This document shows, piece by piece, positions 20,692-40,878 of a stretch of 64,000 nt of DNA. The stretch lies in assembly GCF_057098645.1 (NCBI RefSeq), contig NZ_CM169472.1. One strand, given 5' to 3'. The notes beneath the pieces are model-generated. The model made no database searches. It saw nothing but the letters and a program-made list of their open reading frames with translations, and was not told where the DNA came from. The number at the start of each line of letters is the position of its first letter. Within the stretch, counting starts at the first letter, position 1. Both the position numbers and the translations under genes were made by a program.

Positions 20692-22971
20692 ATGAATAGA
20701 ATTAATATATTGGTCATCTGTATGGTCGTATTTTTTATGACTGGCAATGCATGTGCCACAGAGTGGATCAGTAGCGAGGACCTTATCACCTCTGACTTTC
20801 ATCTTATGACGGCAGATGAGCGCAACGTGGTTAAAGCGGCAACCGACGATAGTATGGAAGCTGCTTATATGCTAAAAGATAATATCCGCTGGTATTATCA
20901 TAATGGTGACCTATCATTACCCGCTAACTTCAGCAATCAAAATAAACTGGTGGTGAACGGTAATTTAACGATTTCCGGCGATTATGATGATTATCTGTCA
21001 GGTAATGGTCATCTGATTGTATTAGGTAATGTTATTGTCGATAACTTTATTAATCATGATTTCGCGTATGTCAAAGGACAGATGACAGCGAAAGGTTTAG
21101 TTTATGCTGATTACAATGATCATAACTTTGAAGTGATGAAGGGAATTAGTGCGCGAGGCATTATTGTTTCCGATAAAGCAACGCAATTTGAAGTCATTAA
21201 AGCTGAATTTTATATCAATGAAGATGGAAGTGGTGAAGGATATAACTGGGATGAGAATATTCAAAAAGCCTATTCACTGGTGACTGCCGATCTTTATGAT
21301 CACACTGAAATCGAAACCGATAACATTTCCAATGCGTATCCTGACTATGATAGCGTCGCAGACAACATCGTTCAGGGTTTACCGCTTTTTCGAGATAAAG
21401 CCGCTCCTGAAATTAATGAGAAATTAAAATGGATTGAAACGGGGAAACTCGATAATTTCCCAGCGAATAAAATAAAGCATCAAGATCCACTGGTGGTACG
21501 TTTTTTGACTCATACAGAGAGTTTATCACCCGCCGTTATGCTGCAACTGTTACAGCACCCCGATGACCAGACGCGTGAATCGATGGCGCAGTCCTGGCCC
21601 GCTCAACAGATGCATTTGCTTACCGATGAATTAATTAAAGATGAGGCTGTTGCCAGAGGGCTGGTTAAAAACAGTAATATTTCCGCCGATGTGAATAAAA
21701 AATTAATGTCTGTACCCGTCGAGAGCGTACAGCTGGAGCAGGCCAGACAGGATAATCTTTCTCCAGATATTGTTGCGTCGTTAAGTCATAGCCCCTTTCT
21801 CAGTGTACGCAAGACATTACTCAGCCATTACGATTACGCCTGGCTGGTTCCGACTGCAGTGGCCGATGAGTTGATAAATAACGAAGACCCGGAGTTACGT
21901 GAAAGAATTACCGGAGCAGATTTAACCGCACAACAAGCAGTGATGTTGAGTAAAGATAAATCACTGAAAGTTCGTGAAGCATTAGCCCGGACGCTTACTG
22001 AATTAAAAATTACCCAACTGTCAGCAACCCTGCGTACAGAGGATATTGAACGTATCGCAGAACAAATGTATCTGGATAATAAAGAAAATAAAAATATCGT
22101 AAAAGCGTTATTGATAGCGTTGCCGGAGATGCGTCAACTGTCTCTGGCAAAAGAAGATGTGCACAATTTGCGCGAAGGTGCGCGTTATCTGACATCGAAG
22201 GACGTGATTAGTTATCTATTGACTCAGCATGATGTTCCCACCGTCTGGGATGAGCTGGCACGCGATAAATTATTGCCGCTGGAATATAAGAAACAGTTAT
22301 GGCAACGCACATTAAATTTAATGATGAGCAAACGGCAAGAAGATCAAGAGCAAGCCTACGAAGTACAGCTGGCGCTGATTGATAATGGTGTTGTTGACGA
22401 AGAGATGTTAAATAATGCCATTGATTTACTGGTTGATTTACCCGCTGAATACCGCTATCGAATGCGTAACCAATTATTTGATAATAAAGATTTACCTTCC
22501 GGAATTATCAACAAACTCGATCAACAGTATCGCTTCAACTCTGACTGGGCGCTGGCTGTTGTCAGTATGAAAAATAGCACCCGTAGGCAAAGTGAAAGAG
22601 GATTACACCGCTGGAACCATGAGGATAGCGATATTTTTGCGGAACTGGCGACGATAAAAGATAAATCAGATGATGAATGGTGGCGTGCATTGCTGCAAAG
22701 TCGCAATGATCATTTGCGCCAAACGGCATTACGCAACGCACATACCCCGGCGTCGTTGTTAACGACATTGACTGAGTCTCAGGATCGGTCGCTGGCTATT
22801 AATAATCCACAGCTGGCTGCCGATGTGAAAACGGTGTGGCTAAAAGAGGATCCATCATTGCTTTTATTTGTCGATCAACCCGATCTTTCGCAGTTACGGG
22901 ATTTAGTGAAAACCGGGGCAACGCGGAAAATTCGCAGTGAAGCGCGTCACCGGCTTGAGGAAAAACAATGA
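20692..22971 (+). CDS. Accessory secreted repeat protein (759 aa): Sec signal peptide, beta-rich N-domain, HEAT/LRV-like helical repeats
   Basis: ATG at 20692 gives MNRINILVICMVVFFMTGNACA|TEW (AxA cleavage site). N-terminal third has glycine-punctuated beta-strand-like repeats (LVVNGNLTISGDY, HLIVLGNVIVDNF, GLVYADY, GIIVSDK). C-terminal two-thirds has helical repeats (SPDIVASLSHSPFLSVRKTLL, EDPELRERITGADLTAQQAV). AT-rich codon usage by eye. Confidence 0.7.
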   Translation: MNRINILVICMVVFFMTGNACATEWISSEDLITSDFHLMTADERNVVKAATDDSMEAAYMLKDNIRWYYHNGDLSLPANFSNQNKLVVNGNLTISGDYDDYLSGNGHLIVLGNVIVDNFINHDFAYVKGQMTAKGLVYADYNDHNFEVMKGISARGIIVSDKATQFEVIKAEFYINEDGSGEGYNWDENIQKAYSLVTADLYDHTEIETDNISNAYPDYDSVADNIVQGLPLFRDKAAPEINEKLKWIETGKLDNFPANKIKHQDPLVVRFLTHTESLSPAVMLQLLQHPDDQTRESMAQSWPAQQMHLLTDELIKDEAVARGLVKNSNISADVNKKLMSVPVESVQLEQARQDNLSPDIVASLSHSPFLSVRKTLLSHYDYAWLVPTAVADELINNEDPELRERITGADLTAQQAVMLSKDKSLKVREALARTLTELKITQLSATLRTEDIERIAEQMYLDNKENKNIVKALLIALPEMRQLSLAKEDVHNLREGARYLTSKDVISYLLTQHDVPTVWDELARDKLLPLEYKKQLWQRTLNLMMSKRQEDQEQAYEVQLALIDNGVVDEEMLNNAIDLLVDLPAEYRYRMRNQLFDNKDLPSGIINKLDQQYRFNSDWALAVVSMKNSTRRQSERGLHRWNHEDSDIFAELATIKDKSDDEWWRALLQSRNDHLRQTALRNAHTPASLLTTLTESQDRSLAINNPQLAADVKTVWLKEDPSLLLFVDQPDLSQLRDLVKTGATRKIRSEARHRLEEKQ

Positions 22972-23423
22972 CACAACGCCCCTGGAGCAAGTTACAGCGG
23001 GAGAACTATGACTTACTGACGCCAACGATCAACCTGCACATTCACTGTACCCGTTATCCCATGCGCAGCCAAAATGGTGGAAGCACCGATTTACCGCGTT
23101 ATTGGATCACGTTGGATAAAAACGTGATCTGGGATTACCCGAAAGACTTTATTGCAGGTAACGGTGGAGTGCGTAATTTTCACGGTGAAACTTGCTGGTA
23201 TCCTTACCTGACGGATATTTGTCCAATTTCTGATTTATTGCGTGAATATATTGACACCCCAAAAGCGGAGCTGTTAACAAAACAATTTACCAGCGATAAA
23301 TGGGGGTTAGTGAATATTCTGCGTGCTGCTGACAGGCGAATAGGGATGAGACGATTCGATCAGTTACGGCGTAAAACGCATAATATTGCTGCGCTAAAAA
23401 TTATTGCCCGCCGTAGCGAATAA
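22968..23423 (+). CDS. Hypothetical protein (151 aa) translationally coupled to the upstream gene; may correspond to the K-12 ykiA locus
   Basis: ATGA start/stop overlap with the upstream ORF; basic, Trp/Tyr-rich; no family recognised. Confidence 0.55.
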   Translation: MTQRPWSKLQRENYDLLTPTINLHIHCTRYPMRSQNGGSTDLPRYWITLDKNVIWDYPKDFIAGNGGVRNFHGETCWYPYLTDICPISDLLREYIDTPKAELLTKQFTSDKWGLVNILRAADRRIGMRRFDQLRRKTHNIAALKIIARRSE

Positions 23424-23448
23424 TTATATGCCTGGTGTGGCTTCGTAC

Positions 23449-23481
23449 GCCGGATAAGACGCGGCAGGCGTCGCATCCGGC
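23449..23481. repeat. REP-like palindromic element between islet A and rdgC
   Basis: gccggataagacgcggcaggcgtcgcatccggc, typical REP core motifs. Confidence 0.6.
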
Positions 23482-23500
23482 ATTAAAGGAAAATCAGCAA

Positions 23501-24412
23501 TTAACGTTGTGCTTCACCACCTAATCCTTCAATCAGGTTTTGAATTAACGCTGCCAGTTCACCAGTCATCAGGATGAAATCGGCATCAAAACGCTGGGCG
23601 AAATCTTCACGGTCGATATCTTCGTTTTGATCGCGCAGCTCGTCGCAGAACTTCAGACGCTTGAGCGAACCATCGTCGCACATCACAAACTGAATGCGCT
23701 GCTGCCAGTCGAGCGCCAGTTTAGTCACCACTTTTCCGGCTTCAATGTGATTGGTGATCTCTTCGCTGGTCAGATCTTGTTTCTTCGCGCGGATCACTCC
23801 GCCATCTTCCAGCAACGATTTCAGCTCGGCTTCATCAAGCAGCTGGAAGCCCTGTGCCGCACTACCGGAACGTACCCATTCGGTCAGCGTCAGTTCAATC
23901 GGGTTTTCCATGCTCAATGGTACAACCGGTAACGACCCCAGGCTTTTACGCAGCAGTGCCAGCGTATCTTCCGCTTTTTTGGCACTGGCGCAGTCCACCA
24001 TAATCAAACCATTAACCGTGTCGATCCACATCATTGTCTGGCTAAAACGGCTGAAAGCACGCGGCAGCAGAGAGTGCAGCACTTCGTCTTTCAGCGAATC
24101 TTTTTCGGTTTTCTTCAGCTTACGCGCCTGTTCCGCTTCCAGTTTGGCGATTTTCGCTTCCAGCGCCTGTTTAATCACCGGAGACGGGAGGATTTTTTCT
24201 TCTTTGCGTGCGCAGATAACAATTTGACCATTGGCAACGTGCGTTAACGCATCGCTGTGCGATCCCATCGGAGGAACCCAGCCCATCTTCGCCATGTCCT
24301 GGCTGCCGCATGGGGTAAATGCCATCGAGGCTAGCTGTTTTTCCATCTCTTCTGCACGCAGCGAAATCTCGCGGCTAAGACGGTAAACCATTAAATTTTT
24401 GAACCACAGCAT
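23501..24412 (-). CDS. rdgC: Recombination-associated protein RdgC
   Basis: Start at [18 protein letters not shown]... (303 aa); ORF-track over-extended by 24 codons. Confidence 0.92.
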
Positions 24413-35273: not shown

Positions 35274-36647
35274 ATGGAAAGTAAGAACAAGCTAAAGCGT
35301 GGGCTAAGTACCCGCCACATACGCTTTATGGCACTGGGTTCAGCAATTGGCACCGGGCTGTTTTACGGTTCGGCAGATGCCATCAAAATGGCCGGTCCGA
35401 GCGTGTTGTTGGCCTATATTATCGGTGGTATCGCGGCGTATATCATTATGCGTGCGCTGGGGGAAATGTCGGTACATAACCCGGCAGCCAGCTCTTTCTC
35501 GCGTTATGCGCAGGAAAACCTCGGACCGCTGGCAGGTTACATTACCGGCTGGACCTACTGCTTTGAAATCCTAATTGTCGCCATCGCCGATGTGACCGCT
35601 TTTGGTATCTATATGGGTGTCTGGTTCCCGACGGTGCCGCACTGGATTTGGGTACTGAGCGTGGTGCTGATCATTTGCGCCGTAAACCTGATGAGCGTGA
35701 AGGTCTTCGGGGAGCTGGAATTCTGGTTCTCGTTCTTTAAAGTCGCCACCATCATCATCATGATTGTCGCTGGTTTCGGCATCATCATCTGGGGGATTGG
35801 CAACGGCGGGCAACCGACCGGTATTCATAACCTGTGGAGCAACGGCGGCTTCTTCAGTAACGGCTGGCTTGGCATGGTAATGTCGTTGCAAATGGTGATG
35901 TTTGCTTACGGTGGGATCGAAATTATCGGGATTACCGCCGGTGAAGCGAAAGATCCTGAGAAATCGATACCGCGTGCGATTAACTCCGTGCCGATGCGTA
36001 TTCTGGTGTTCTACGTCGGTACGCTGTTCGTCATTATGTCTATCTACCCGTGGAATCAGGTTGGCACTGCCGGTAGCCCGTTCGTGCTGACGTTCCAGCA
36101 TATGGGCATTACCTTTGCCGCCAGCATTCTTAACTTTGTTGTGCTGACTGCTTCGCTGTCGGCAATTAACAGTGACGTATTTGGCGTAGGCCGTATGCTC
36201 CACGGTATGGCAGAGCAGGGCAGCGCGCCGAAAATTTTCAGCAAAACGTCGCGTCGCGGTATTCCGTGGGTTACGGTGCTGGTGATGACTACCGCGCTGC
36301 TGTTTGCGGTGTATCTGAACTACATCATGCCGGAAAACGTCTTCCTGGTGATCGCTTCGCTGGCAACCTTCGCCACGGTATGGGTGTGGATTATGATCCT
36401 GCTGTCGCAAATCGCCTTCCGTCGCCGTTTGCCGCCAGAAGAAGTTAAGGCGCTGAAATTTAAAGTGCCGGGTGGGGTAGCAACGACCATCGGCGGGCTG
36501 ATTTTCCTGCTCTTTATTATCGGGTTGATTGGTTATCACCCGGATACGCGTATCTCGCTGTATGTCGGTTTCGCGTGGATTGTTGTGCTGTTGATTGGCT
36601 GGATGTTTAAGCGTCGCCACGATCGTCAGCTGGCTGAAAACCAGTAA
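35274..36647 (+). CDS. proY: Proline-specific permease (APC family)
   Basis: Start at [32 protein letters not shown]... (457 aa). Confidence 0.92.
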
Positions 36648-36805
36648 TCCTTGCGTTCTGTAAGCCGGTTCAGGAGGAAATCCTGATCCGGCTATTCCGA
36701 AAGTTATCCGCCCCCGTCCTCCTCCCCCAAATATCCTTCAGATGATGAGTGATCCTGCATTAGGCTATGGCAAGGTGATCAGATTTTCATCACAGGGGAA
36801 TTATG

Positions 36806-38620
36806 ATGTTAAATGCATGGCACCTGCCGGTGCCCCCATTTGTTAAACAAAGCAAAGATCAACTGCTCATTACACTGTGGCTGACGGGCGAAGACCCACC
36901 GCAGCGCATTATGCTGCGTACAGAACACGATAACGAAGAAATGTCAGTACCGATGCATAAGCAGCGCAGTCAGCCGCAGCCTGGTGTCACCGCATGGCGG
37001 GCGGCGATCGATCTCTCCAGCGGACAACCCCGGCGGCGTTATAGTTTCAAATTGCTTTGGCACGATCGCCAGCGTTGGTTTACACCGCAAGGCTTCAGCC
37101 GAATGCCGCCGGCACGACTGGAGCAGTTTGCCATCGATGTACCGGATATCGGTTCACAATGGGCTGCGGATCAGATTTTTTATCAGATCTTCCCTGATCG
37201 TTTCGCCCGTAGTCTTCCTCGTGAAGCTGAACAGGATCATGTCTATTACCATCACGCAGCCGGACAAGAGATCATATTGCGTGACTGGGATGAACCGGTC
37301 ACGGCGCAGGCGGGCGGATCAACGTTCTATGGCGGCGATCTGGACGGGATAAGCGAAAAACTGCCGTATCTGAAAAAACTTGGCGTGACGGCGTTGTATC
37401 TCAATCCGGTGTTTAAAGCTCCCAGCGTACATAAATACGATACCGAGGATTATCGCCATGTCGATCCGCAGTTTGGCGGTGATGGGGCGTTGCTGCGTTT
37501 GCGACACAATACGCAGCAGCTGGGAATGCGGCTGGTGCTGGACGGCGTGTTTAACCACAGTGGCGATTCCCATGCCTGGTTTGACAGGCACAATCGTGGC
37601 ACGGGGGGAGCTTGTCACAACCCCGAATCGCCCTGGCGCGACTGGTACTCGTTTAGTGATGATGGCACGGCGCTCGACTGGCTTGGCTATGCCAGCTTGC
37701 CGAAGCTGGATTATCAGTCGGAAAGTCTGGTGAATGAAATTTATCGCGGGGAAGACAGTATTGTCCGCCACTGGCTGAAAGCGCCGTGGAATATGGACGG
37801 CTGGCGGCTGGATGTGGTGCATATGCTGGGGGAAGCGGGTGGGGCGCGCAATAATTTGCAGCACGTAGCCGGGATCACCGAAGCGGCGAAAGAAACCCAG
37901 CCGGAAGCGTATATAGTTGGAGAGCATTTTGGCGATGCACGGCAATGGTTACAGGCCGATGTGGAAGATGCCGCCATGAACTATCGCGGCTTCACATTCC
38001 CGTTGTGGGGATTTCTTGCCAATACCGACATCTCTTACGATCCGCAGCAAATTGACGCCCAAACCTGTATGGCCTGGATGGATAATTACCGCGCAGGGCT
38101 TTCTCATCAACAGCAACTGCGTATGTTTAATCAGCTCGACAGCCACGATACTGCGCGATTTAAAACGCTACTCGGTCGGGAGGTTGCGCGCCTGCCCCTG
38201 GCAGTGGTCTGGCTGTTCACCTGGCCTGGTGTACCGTGCATTTATTACGGTGATGAAGTGGGACTGGATGGCAAAAATGATCCGTTTTGCCGTAAGCCGT
38301 TCCCCTGGCAGGTGGAAAAACAGGATATGGCGTTATTCGCGTTGTACCAGCGAATGATTGCGCTGCGTAAGAAAAGTCAGGCGCTGCGTCGTGGCGGCTG
38401 TCAGGTGCTGTATGCGGAAGATAACGTGGTGGTATTTGTCCGCGTGCTGAATCAGCAGCGTGTACTGGTGGCAATTAACCGTGGCGAAGCCTGTGAAGTG
38501 GTGCTACCCGCGTCACCGTTTCTTAATGTCGTGCAATGGCAACGCAAAGAAGGCCATGGGCAACTGACAGACGGGATTCTGGCTTTGCCTGCCATTTCGG
38601 CTACGGTGTGGATGAACTAA
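36806..38620 (+). CDS. malZ: Maltodextrin glucosidase
   Basis: 604 aa from [12 protein letters not shown]...; GH13 alpha-amylase family; ORF-track start at 36803 is an equally possible adjacent ATG. Confidence 0.92.
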
Positions 38621-38653: not shown

Positions 38654-38701
38654 CAGCCCTGACACTACGCAGCGCAAAAAAGCTGCTCAATGTCAGGGCT
38701 G
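38654..38701 (+). terminator. Long stem-loop downstream of malZ (putative terminator / islet boundary)
   Basis: cagccctgaca ... tgtcagggctg 11-bp perfect stem with a structured 26-nt loop, followed by AT-rich sequence. Confidence 0.45.
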
Positions 38702-38807
38702 AATTTGTTAAATATTTGTCCCGATCGATATGAGCGATTTTTGGTATTGTTTGCCCATGATGTTATGTACAACATGCTCCAGGATAACCCTGTAGTGGAG
38801 CAAAGAT

Positions 38808-39866
38808 ATGACAATTTCAAATTCGAATTTATTAAAACCGTTTATTACTGGTTCTAAGTTGCTACCTTTTAAGGATGATGTCTTTTCTAAAACAGAAGAA
38901 CAATTTAAAAAAGCCCCCATGGCAAATCGCTTTTCATTTCCGGAAATGAAAACTTAGTAAACATTTCAGCGGAAAAAATCGATGAAATAAAAAATAGCAA
39001 AAATTTCTTTTCAAACATTGTAAATATAATAATTTTACTCATTAAGCATCCTGATAAAATTCTGCCTATTCTTCATGGTTGTCCTGCAGAGCCCATCGAA
39101 TTCATTAAGAATGCGAAACGAACGGGGCAATGGTCATATGAGATGACTGATAAGTACGGGCAGAGTATTGAAGTGTCCTATATTTTCACTGATACCATAG
39201 ATAATAAATCTGATGGAAAATTATGCTTAAAAATCTGTAACTCCTGCAACCAAAATGATTCTAGTACACATGAATATAAAATAGATCATCAACAGTTGAA
39301 AAATCACATAAAGCAACTTGAGGAGTGGGCTCTTCTTGAAAAGTTTTATGATAACAACGCTTATTATTCTAAACGTACAAAACAATTAGAGAAGAAAATT
39401 ACCGATGCGGGGTTTATAACAGGGAAGGTTAATGCCGAGAAGTTTAATGTAAAAGAGTTTAAAGACGATATAACCTCGATGCTTTGTGAACAGCCGCCCC
39501 TGCGTACACACCAGATTTCTTCATCCGGATACGTATCTGCAGATAAACTGCCCAAACTCTATGAGTTAAATTTGAAAGACGCGCAGAGAGATCTTAAAAC
39601 AACACCGGTTGACATCGATGGTGTCAGTTTAAAATTTAAAACTCGGGAAAGAATTGCAGAAGAAATTGCGAAAAAAACTGCGGGAAAAACTGCGGAAAAA
39701 AATTCGGAAATAATTGCGAAACAAAATGCGAATAGCATTGAGGAGAAGAATATTGAAAAAAAACAAGAAAGAAACAAATCCTGAAGATAATTTTGTCTTA
39801 AAATTCTCACAGGAAGAAATCAATGAGATGCTCCTGGATTACAGCGACGAAGAACAAAAAAATTAA
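38808..39866 (+). pseudogene. Accessory gene interrupted by two frameshifts at homopolymer tracts (would encode about 350 aa)
   Basis: ATG at 38808 with GGAG SD starts MTISNSNLLKPFITGSKLLPF... (frame 0). Reading continues without stop in frame 2 after the A6-G-C5 tract at 38907-38918, through the ORF-track 213-aa segment (39143-39784). It returns to frame 0 after the A8 tract at 39754-39761 and ends at 39866 (...FSQEEINEMLLDYSDEEQKN). Confidence 0.6.
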
Positions 39867-39898
39867 GACCTTTTTTCACTAGTGATCACATCTATTGT

Positions 39899-40276
39899 TT
39901 GTTCGATGCTTTTAGTCAGTGTTTGCATAATGTTGCTCGTGATGGCAGTCCACGGTATGCAGGTTTACTACAACAAATAGCATCCAAGTGTGCGATATTA
40001 CAAGATTTTGATCAACAATTGTTCTGGCGCACGTTTACAGGAGGGGGCCTCCATCGACATATCTCTGTGAAGAGCGAGCCAGAAAAGACAGATGTATGGC
40101 GATTCAGTACACAATTTGATTTTCCACATATAAATGAAAACGGAGAGTTGTCCAGAACGGTACTCATGTTCGAGGGGGTTGCTGAAAGCAACTTTAAAGA
40201 TATCGCCAATCATTCCAGCGAATGTTTTTCTTACCGTTGTTATGCCGCCCCGCTGGATGCGAATGCTAAAAAGTAA
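39899..40276 (+). CDS. Hypothetical protein (about 125 aa), start uncertain (TTG in ORF track)
   Basis: ORF with no ATG near its 5' end; AT-rich; no family recognised; may be a gene remnant. Confidence 0.3.
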   Translation: MFDAFSQCLHNVARDGSPRYAGLLQQIASKCAILQDFDQQLFWRTFTGGGLHRHISVKSEPEKTDVWRFSTQFDFPHINENGELSRTVLMFEGVAESNFKDIANHSSECFSYRCYAAPLDANAKK

Positions 40277-40296: not shown

Positions 40297-40878
40297 TCAG
40301 AGCGCCTTGCGTGACGCCTGCGCCATCATCCGCGGATAAAACTGCCAGAAGCGGGTTTCGAGGGCGGCATAATGTGCGTTTAAATCGTACCAGGAGTCAC
40401 GCAGGGCATCCAGACGTGGGCGACGGCTTGCCATGCCGTTTAACACGTTCTGGATGAAATCCATATCGCGATAGCGCACCAGCCACTGCTCTGACCACAA
40501 GTAATTGTTCAGATTGATAAAACGTGGCGGTGAGTCCGGCAAAATCGTCATCACTTGCTCGCGGGCATAACAGACAAATTCCTGTAGCGGAAAGTCCGGC
40601 GACAGCTGCGACCAGTGGCGGGAAAGAAAGTGATCCCACATGACATCCAGGGTAATAGGCGCAACGCGGCGCGTTTCACTACGAAACCATTCCCGTGCTT
40701 CGCGGACTTCCGGCAGATTGTCAGTCAATACGTCGATACGTCGATGCATATGAATGCCAGCCACGACGTCGGGCGGAAAACTTTCTTCAGGATTTCCGCG
40801 TACGAAATCAGCCAGCAAATTGCCGGAAAGCGAGCTTTCCGCGAGATGGGCTAAATGCAGGTGAGCTAAAAAATTCAT
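40297..40878 (-). CDS. acpH: Acyl carrier protein phosphodiesterase
   Basis: 193 aa, [25 protein letters not shown]... Confidence 0.92.

Follow-up and report, generated by a model that had tools for sequence, protein, structure and literature searches.

An inherited one-base deletion in a poly-A run most probably marks a decaying pseudogene between malZ and acpH in a relative of Escherichia coli O145:H28

The window analysed in this study is a stretch of 64,000 nucleotides of E. coli DNA, in which a small accessory islet is located between malZ (36803-38620, + strand, identified by Pfam and annotation) and acpH (40297-40878, - strand). The islet is 1.7 kb long and has a GC content of 0.34-0.40, compared with approximately 0.53 in its flanks. 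Of 5426 complete E. coli genomes, 1127 carry it, in every case on the chromosome and flanked by these two neighbours. An inverted repeat (I2, 38654-38701, + strand) directly past the malZ stop codon is taken as the rough left boundary of the islet region; its 20-nt arms are 85% complementary, and it possibly acts as the malZ terminator. A search of the literature on the malZ-acpH islet found nothing relevant. The window holds a second accessory gene, espY3, which encodes a T3SS effector with pentapeptide repeats and was placed between pgpA and yajO (approximately 53244-54806, - strand) by correspondence with the annotation of O145 strain RM9872. Among the other loci, L004 carries a 759-aa DUF2773 protein together with an SF0329-family gene (21657-23936).

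The accessory gene opens at ATG 38808, and a Shine-Dalgarno sequence, GGAG, is located 7 nt upstream (38797-38800, + strand), identical in all four aligned alleles. The original prediction of a frame with a good Shine-Dalgarno sequence that stops at 38955-38957 was confirmed; the ATG opens an ORF of 49 codons, and the premature TAG at this position (+ strand) closes the 49-aa product of the shifted frame. Direct reading of the window gave AAAAAA at 38907-38912 (tract 1, + strand), G at 38913 and CCCCC at 38914-38918 (+ strand). The -1 frame contains a TAA at 38906-38908 and opens at 38909 (KSPHGKSLF...), which coincides with AAAAAAGCCCCC. This frame had been described as open from 38909 onward, which holds up to a stop at 39782-39784 but not to the end of the gene, with two more frameshifts lying downstream.

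The gene was aligned with its counterpart in O145 RM9872 and with the intact ones of EC1515 (489 aa) and O157:H7 (481 aa). The sole difference at tract 1 was one absent A, the window having six A residues and O145 RM9872, EC1515 and O157 having seven, and its loss moves the reading frame from 0 to -1 after codon 35, between FKK and SPHG. The adjoining C run was unchanged relative to the closest intact alleles, with GCCCCC in the window, O145 RM9872 and EC1515, and the deletion therefore sits in the A run. The original prediction, that one nucleotide had been deleted from either run, is thus supported and can be narrowed to an A7 to A6 change. Given the fact that the A run is one base short of the aligned orthologues, the switch of frame at this point is not a chance coincidence.

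The proposed comparison of tract length with related strains gave a consistent picture. All intact orthologues examined had A7 at tract 1 (FKKSPHG), and the residues F33-K34-K35-S36 were invariant across the family alignment. Seven A residues were also present in all 14 loci that were read directly from the O145 clade or elsewhere, and six in all five loci examined from the window's lineage. None of 1126 complete genomes matched the A6 version of the tract, the best matches being one position off.

Other indels at the A7GC5 site were seen in four N-terminal protein fragments in the public databases (P0136, P0142, P0143 and P0145), on other allele backgrounds and apparently of independent origin. 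P0136 corresponds to A8 (FKKKPPW...), P0143 to A7GC4 (FKKSPMANRF) and P0145 to a deletion in the adjoining C run of an FKKST allele. Each of the four variants was present on one or two contigs, some of which were noisy, and some of the variants may be assembly errors.

The alignment further revealed two poly-A frameshifts that the original prediction did not contain. Tract 2 (39756-39763, + strand) is A8 in place of A7, with one A gained, and is common to the O145:H28 clade. Tract 3 (39856-39862, + strand) is A7 in place of A8, with one A lost, and is private to the window's lineage. According to the alignment with intact orthologues, the whole pseudogene extends from 38808 to 40276 (+ strand) and is divided by the three poly-A indels into four frame segments, the last of which ends at the ancestral stop TAA (40274-40276, + strand), the true gene end. 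Restoring the tracts in silico to A7/A7/A8 gave a stop-free ORF of 489 aa, which demonstrates that the three tract lesions are the only disabling ones. The A8 version of tract 2 was present in 25 complete genomes that were 100% identical over an 86-nt query, all of them named O145 or grouping with O145 genomes; it cuts the O145-clade protein to 325 aa, and the RM9872 copy is marked 'frameshifted' in the PGAP annotation. The window's version of tract 3 matched none of 1070 complete genomes, and all other aligned alleles were A8.

One O145 genome, RM12275-C1 (NZ_CP031341.1; L014, 593-2062), carried an intact 489-aa gene with A7 at tract 2, and this tract was its only difference from RM9872 over 3085 nt. 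The A7 is either an exact reversion, such that the tracts can change back, or a homopolymer error in that assembly.

The gene is the orthologue of an uncharacterised protein of 481-489 aa that is present in approximately 21% of complete E. coli genomes. All eight of the non-O145 complete genomes sampled had an intact ORF of this length, in which tract 1 is A7 and tract 3 is A8. Differences in hit length had raised the suspicion of widespread frameshifts; the five genomes checked were all intact (1446, 1458 or 1470 nt), and the odd hit lengths among the complete genomes were explained by intergenic indels rather than by frameshifts in the gene. An apparent gap in a further locus (L007) was a scaffold run of N's rather than a lesion. 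Inside the gene, a tandem array of a 12-nt repeat (family D1, 39638-39745, + strand) encodes KTAE/IAEE-type repeats, and the protein alignment showed that in-frame variation in its copy number accounts for the alleles of 473, 481, 485, 489 and 493 aa.

Searches of Pfam, NCBIfam and PADLOC with the intact protein returned no significant family. An exhaustive phmmer search of 1.84e9 representative proteins recovered only the same Escherichia protein, full-length or as fragments, and a word-indexed protein search recovered only Escherichia/Shigella entries named 'hypothetical protein'. The AlphaFold2 model, built from an alignment of 10 sequences, had a mean pLDDT of 37.7 and a pTM of 0.27, with no confident fold. 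A promoter scan of the + strand upstream of the gene identified no sigma-70-like site. The dN/dS value between the EC1515 and O157 alleles was 0.56, which indicates weak purifying selection. The parent gene is an Escherichia-restricted orphan that is kept intact in most of the strains carrying it.

The intact allele (L002, 1709-3178) contains five A runs of at least seven bases, more than expected: shuffling its nucleotides gave 0.76 such runs (P=0.0005), and shuffling its codons gave 1.78 (P=0.024). The islet gene also contains a perfect palindrome of 22 nt, TTTTCATTTCCGGAAATGAAAA, at 38931-38952, starting 18 nt past the A run of tract 1. No other perfect palindrome in the 64-kb window has arms of at least 9 nt, arms of at least 11 nt arose in only 2 of 200 composition-preserving shuffles, and the palindrome was identical in all four aligned alleles. 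The palindrome is a possible protein-binding site.

To place the window, its full 64 kb was compared with O145 RM9872. The two were 99.969% identical, differing by 18 SNPs (16 of them transitions, a spectrum that looks natural) and only two indels, and both indels were located inside the islet gene, at tracts 1 and 3. Approximately 26 genomes named O145 or grouping with O145 were roughly equidistant from the window, and the next-nearest genomes reached at most 98.8% identity. This near-equal distance indicates that the window belongs to a lineage that is sister to the sequenced E. coli O145:H28 clade. The gene makes up 2.3% of the window, yet holds 4 of its 20 differences from RM9872 (binomial P=0.001). 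Both of the SNPs in the gene are non-synonymous, and one of them, S96P, alters a position at which the family alignment shows no variation. The excess of differences and the S96P change fit a relaxed constraint that would have acted on an already dead gene.

The exact 49-aa product, which is encoded only by the A6 allele, was found in 53 blocks of public assemblies on 28 contigs, under four separate NCBI protein accessions; EHW7699897.1, EIW6475927.1, EJN8623095.1 and EJU2444945.1 are among the entries that carry it. The complete A6/A8/A7 haplotype, together with the gene's two SNPs C39092 and G40047, was identified in Logan SRR32768194, GCA_015672775.1, GCA_024357405.1 and ENA ERZ1714338. At least four assemblies other than the window therefore carry the haplotype, three of them clean; the ENA contig, which is noisy along its whole length, carries less weight. 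Each of the four differs from the window elsewhere, by one or two SNPs or by other changes: one carrier has a SNP at 36119, two have SNPs at 36620 and 39402, and in one of these two acpH has additionally lost 8 bp. The presence of the same haplotype in assemblies that have diverged by SNPs shows that it has been passed down within a lineage whose members have gone on to diverge, and that it is the outcome neither of a sequencing error nor of rapid switching.

A separate change was observed in acpH of GCA_024357405.1 (L013 position 4921, corresponding to 40728-40735 of the window), where one copy of the tandem 8-mer ATACGTCG-ATACGTCG has been lost. Judged from the sequence, this loss should frameshift acpH, and the gene was not called in that assembly.

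We consider, with a probability of roughly 0.9, that the A6 run reflects an inherited A7 to A6 deletion in a pseudogene already inactivated in an ancestor shared with O145:H28, and that no recoding is involved. The order of the lesions was derived by parsimony. The first event would have been the A7 to A8 change at 39756-39763, which would make tract 2 the oldest lesion and would have killed the accessory gene before the window's lineage and the O145:H28 clade separated. Neutral contractions at 38907 (A7 to A6) and 39856 (A8 to A7) would have been added subsequently on the branch that leads to the window, along with the two non-synonymous SNPs. Replication slippage is the likely mechanism of the A7 to A6 change, and translation from ATG 38808 would now yield only the 49-aa peptide. 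Set against rough wild-type E. coli rates of indels in such runs, two extra run indels on so short a branch are somewhat above expectation. Homopolymer run length governs the indel rate, with longer runs having higher rates (PMC8510543).

The features expected of a frameshift pseudogene were all found at this locus. Intact in-frame orthologues differ from the window's copy by an indel, the allele is inherited within a lineage, and the copy carries extra lesions and signs of relaxed constraint. The original prediction had named a fixed pseudogene, with all orthologues equally disrupted, as the outcome that would speak against it; this is what was observed within the window's lineage, but the orthologues elsewhere are intact. 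Frameshift pseudogenes that arise from indels in mononucleotide runs, reported as 'frameshifted' in PGAP, are common in Shigella, host-restricted Salmonella and EHEC lineages. The window's copy shares with them the one-nucleotide change in a coding homopolymer, the inherited and lineage-confined derived state, the intact orthologues elsewhere, and the accumulation of disabling lesions and non-synonymous changes. Nothing material sets it apart from the usual cases; all three of its lesions happen to be in poly-A (-1, +1 and -1), and the gene is unusually rich in A7-A8 runs. The frameshift is a commonplace loss of a single base in a decaying pseudogene, and it has become fixed in one lineage.

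Another reading of the same tracts, slipped-strand phase variation, would make them a reversible ON/OFF switch of the kind found in contingency loci. Simple-sequence contingency loci are represented by poly-G, poly-C and poly-A tracts in surface genes of Haemophilus, Neisseria, Campylobacter and Helicobacter, and the window's gene resembles them in having coding homopolymers that set the reading frame. The enrichment of the intact gene in A runs of at least seven bases points in this direction, as do the apparently exact A8 to A7 reversion at tract 2 of RM12275-C1, within the O145 clade, and the indels at the A7GC5 site in other backgrounds (P0136 with A8, P0143 with C4, and P0145). However, two of the A7 runs lie inside the tandem repeat, which partly explains the enrichment, and some of the rare A7GC5 variants derive from noisy contigs. 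Tract length at a contingency locus varies among close isolates, whereas tract 1 was stable, being A6 in every locus examined from the window's lineage, although these loci had diverged by SNPs, and A7 in each of the 14 further loci read directly; the sole exception to such stability was tract 2 in RM12275-C1. A single slip should also restore the ON state, but the window's copy carries three independent lesions, all of which would have to be reversed. Moreover, tracts of six to eight bases are short for frequent switching where bacterial mismatch repair is functional, and the alleles were stable across many genomes. The phase variation raised by the original prediction is consequently improbable for this tract.

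A gentler version of the idea, in which the orphan gene is mutationally fragile and its excess of A7-A8 runs amounts to a slow reversible ON/OFF switch, is only slightly more plausible. If it were true, the gene would have been turned OFF at tract 2 in the O145:H28 ancestor and exactly reverted in RM12275-C1, with the A7GC5 site struck independently elsewhere. The triple-lesion copy of the window would then be a terminal, locked-OFF state, and E. coli, although proficient in mismatch repair, would possess an unusual contingency gene based on homopolymers.

Programmed recoding would restore the ancestral frame and give a trans-frame product, either by a -1 shift of the ribosome on the A run or by the transcription of an extra A, and we regard it as very improbable. 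Lys AAA codons are slippery, a 22-nt perfect palindrome lies downstream (38931-38952), and FKKSPHG, the exact ancestral sequence, would be recreated if the ribosome slipped by -1, or the mRNA gained one A, at any point of the run; this last point is, however, a trivial consequence of a deletion inside the run. The codons of the 0 frame are TTT AAA AAA GCC, which give T_AAA_AAA and contain no in-phase X_XXY_YYZ heptamer. The palindrome, the sole downstream element with the capacity to form a hairpin, is AU-rich and starts 18 nt past the run, so that no stimulator occurs at approximately 5-9 nt, and the RNA fold of 38913-38990 was unremarkable (-15.2 kcal/mol, z=-1.8). The two-frame arrangement was not conserved, the intact orthologues being single in-frame ORFs with A7. 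A rescued product would still stop at 39782-39784 and then meet the third shift at 39856. An in-phase heptamer, a stimulatory structure and conservation, the three marks of -1 frameshifting, are thus all absent, and the programmed slippage considered in the original prediction finds no place at this junction. The comparison with the -1 frameshift of E. coli dnaX (A AAA AAG heptamer, upstream internal Shine-Dalgarno sequence and downstream hairpin) illustrates this. Both have an A run decoded by tRNA-Lys, and a -1 slip in the window's gene would give the ancestral protein sequence, but the heptamer of the window (T AAA AAA G) does not fall in phase, the interval 5-9 nt downstream lacks a stimulatory structure, the orthologues do not share the shift, and it is followed by two others.

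Transcriptional slippage meets a similar difficulty. It is evident mainly at runs of approximately nine A or T residues, with a lower bound of eight (PMC1088944), and the run in the window, at only A6, is below this length. The systems in which it operates (Shigella mxiE with T9, Thermus dnaX with A9, and IS elements with A9 or A8; PMC1088944) likewise have such a run at a two-frame junction, whereas the junction in the window lies in a run of 6 nt, is recent and derived, and corresponds to a single ORF in the orthologues.

An under-called homopolymer in the assembly of an isolate that really has A7 is an equally faint prospect: both window-specific indels are one-nucleotide deletions in A runs of at least seven bases, the kind of error typically made in such runs, the window's versions of tracts 1 and 3 have no match among the complete RefSeq genomes, and random errors in runs of at least seven would both fall inside this gene approximately 11% of the time because it contains 5 of the region's 14 such runs, but the haplotype recurs in the SNP-diverged assemblies from separate sources (Logan, NCBI twice and ENA) described above, the A6-specific product is on 28 contigs, and over the 64 kb compared with RM9872 the other 11 runs of at least seven, and all runs of six except tract 1 (A7 in RM9872), are unchanged, with no other indels. 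An artefact would be confined to one assembly and accompanied by further homopolymer errors, and the original suggestion of a sequencing or assembly error is contradicted by the several independent assemblies, three of them clean.

The parent gene is an orphan of mild interest that has no domain, and its homologues among 1.84 billion representative proteins were confined to Escherichia/Shigella. The significance of the lesion is small beyond correct annotation, which here is one pseudogene at 38808-40276 with three frameshifts, rather than separate hypothetical proteins of 49, 213 and 125 aa or a recoding site. The tract lengths can further be used as a lineage marker, with A6/A8/A7 denoting the window's lineage, A7/A8/A8 the O145:H28 clade and A7/A7/A8 the strains with an intact gene.
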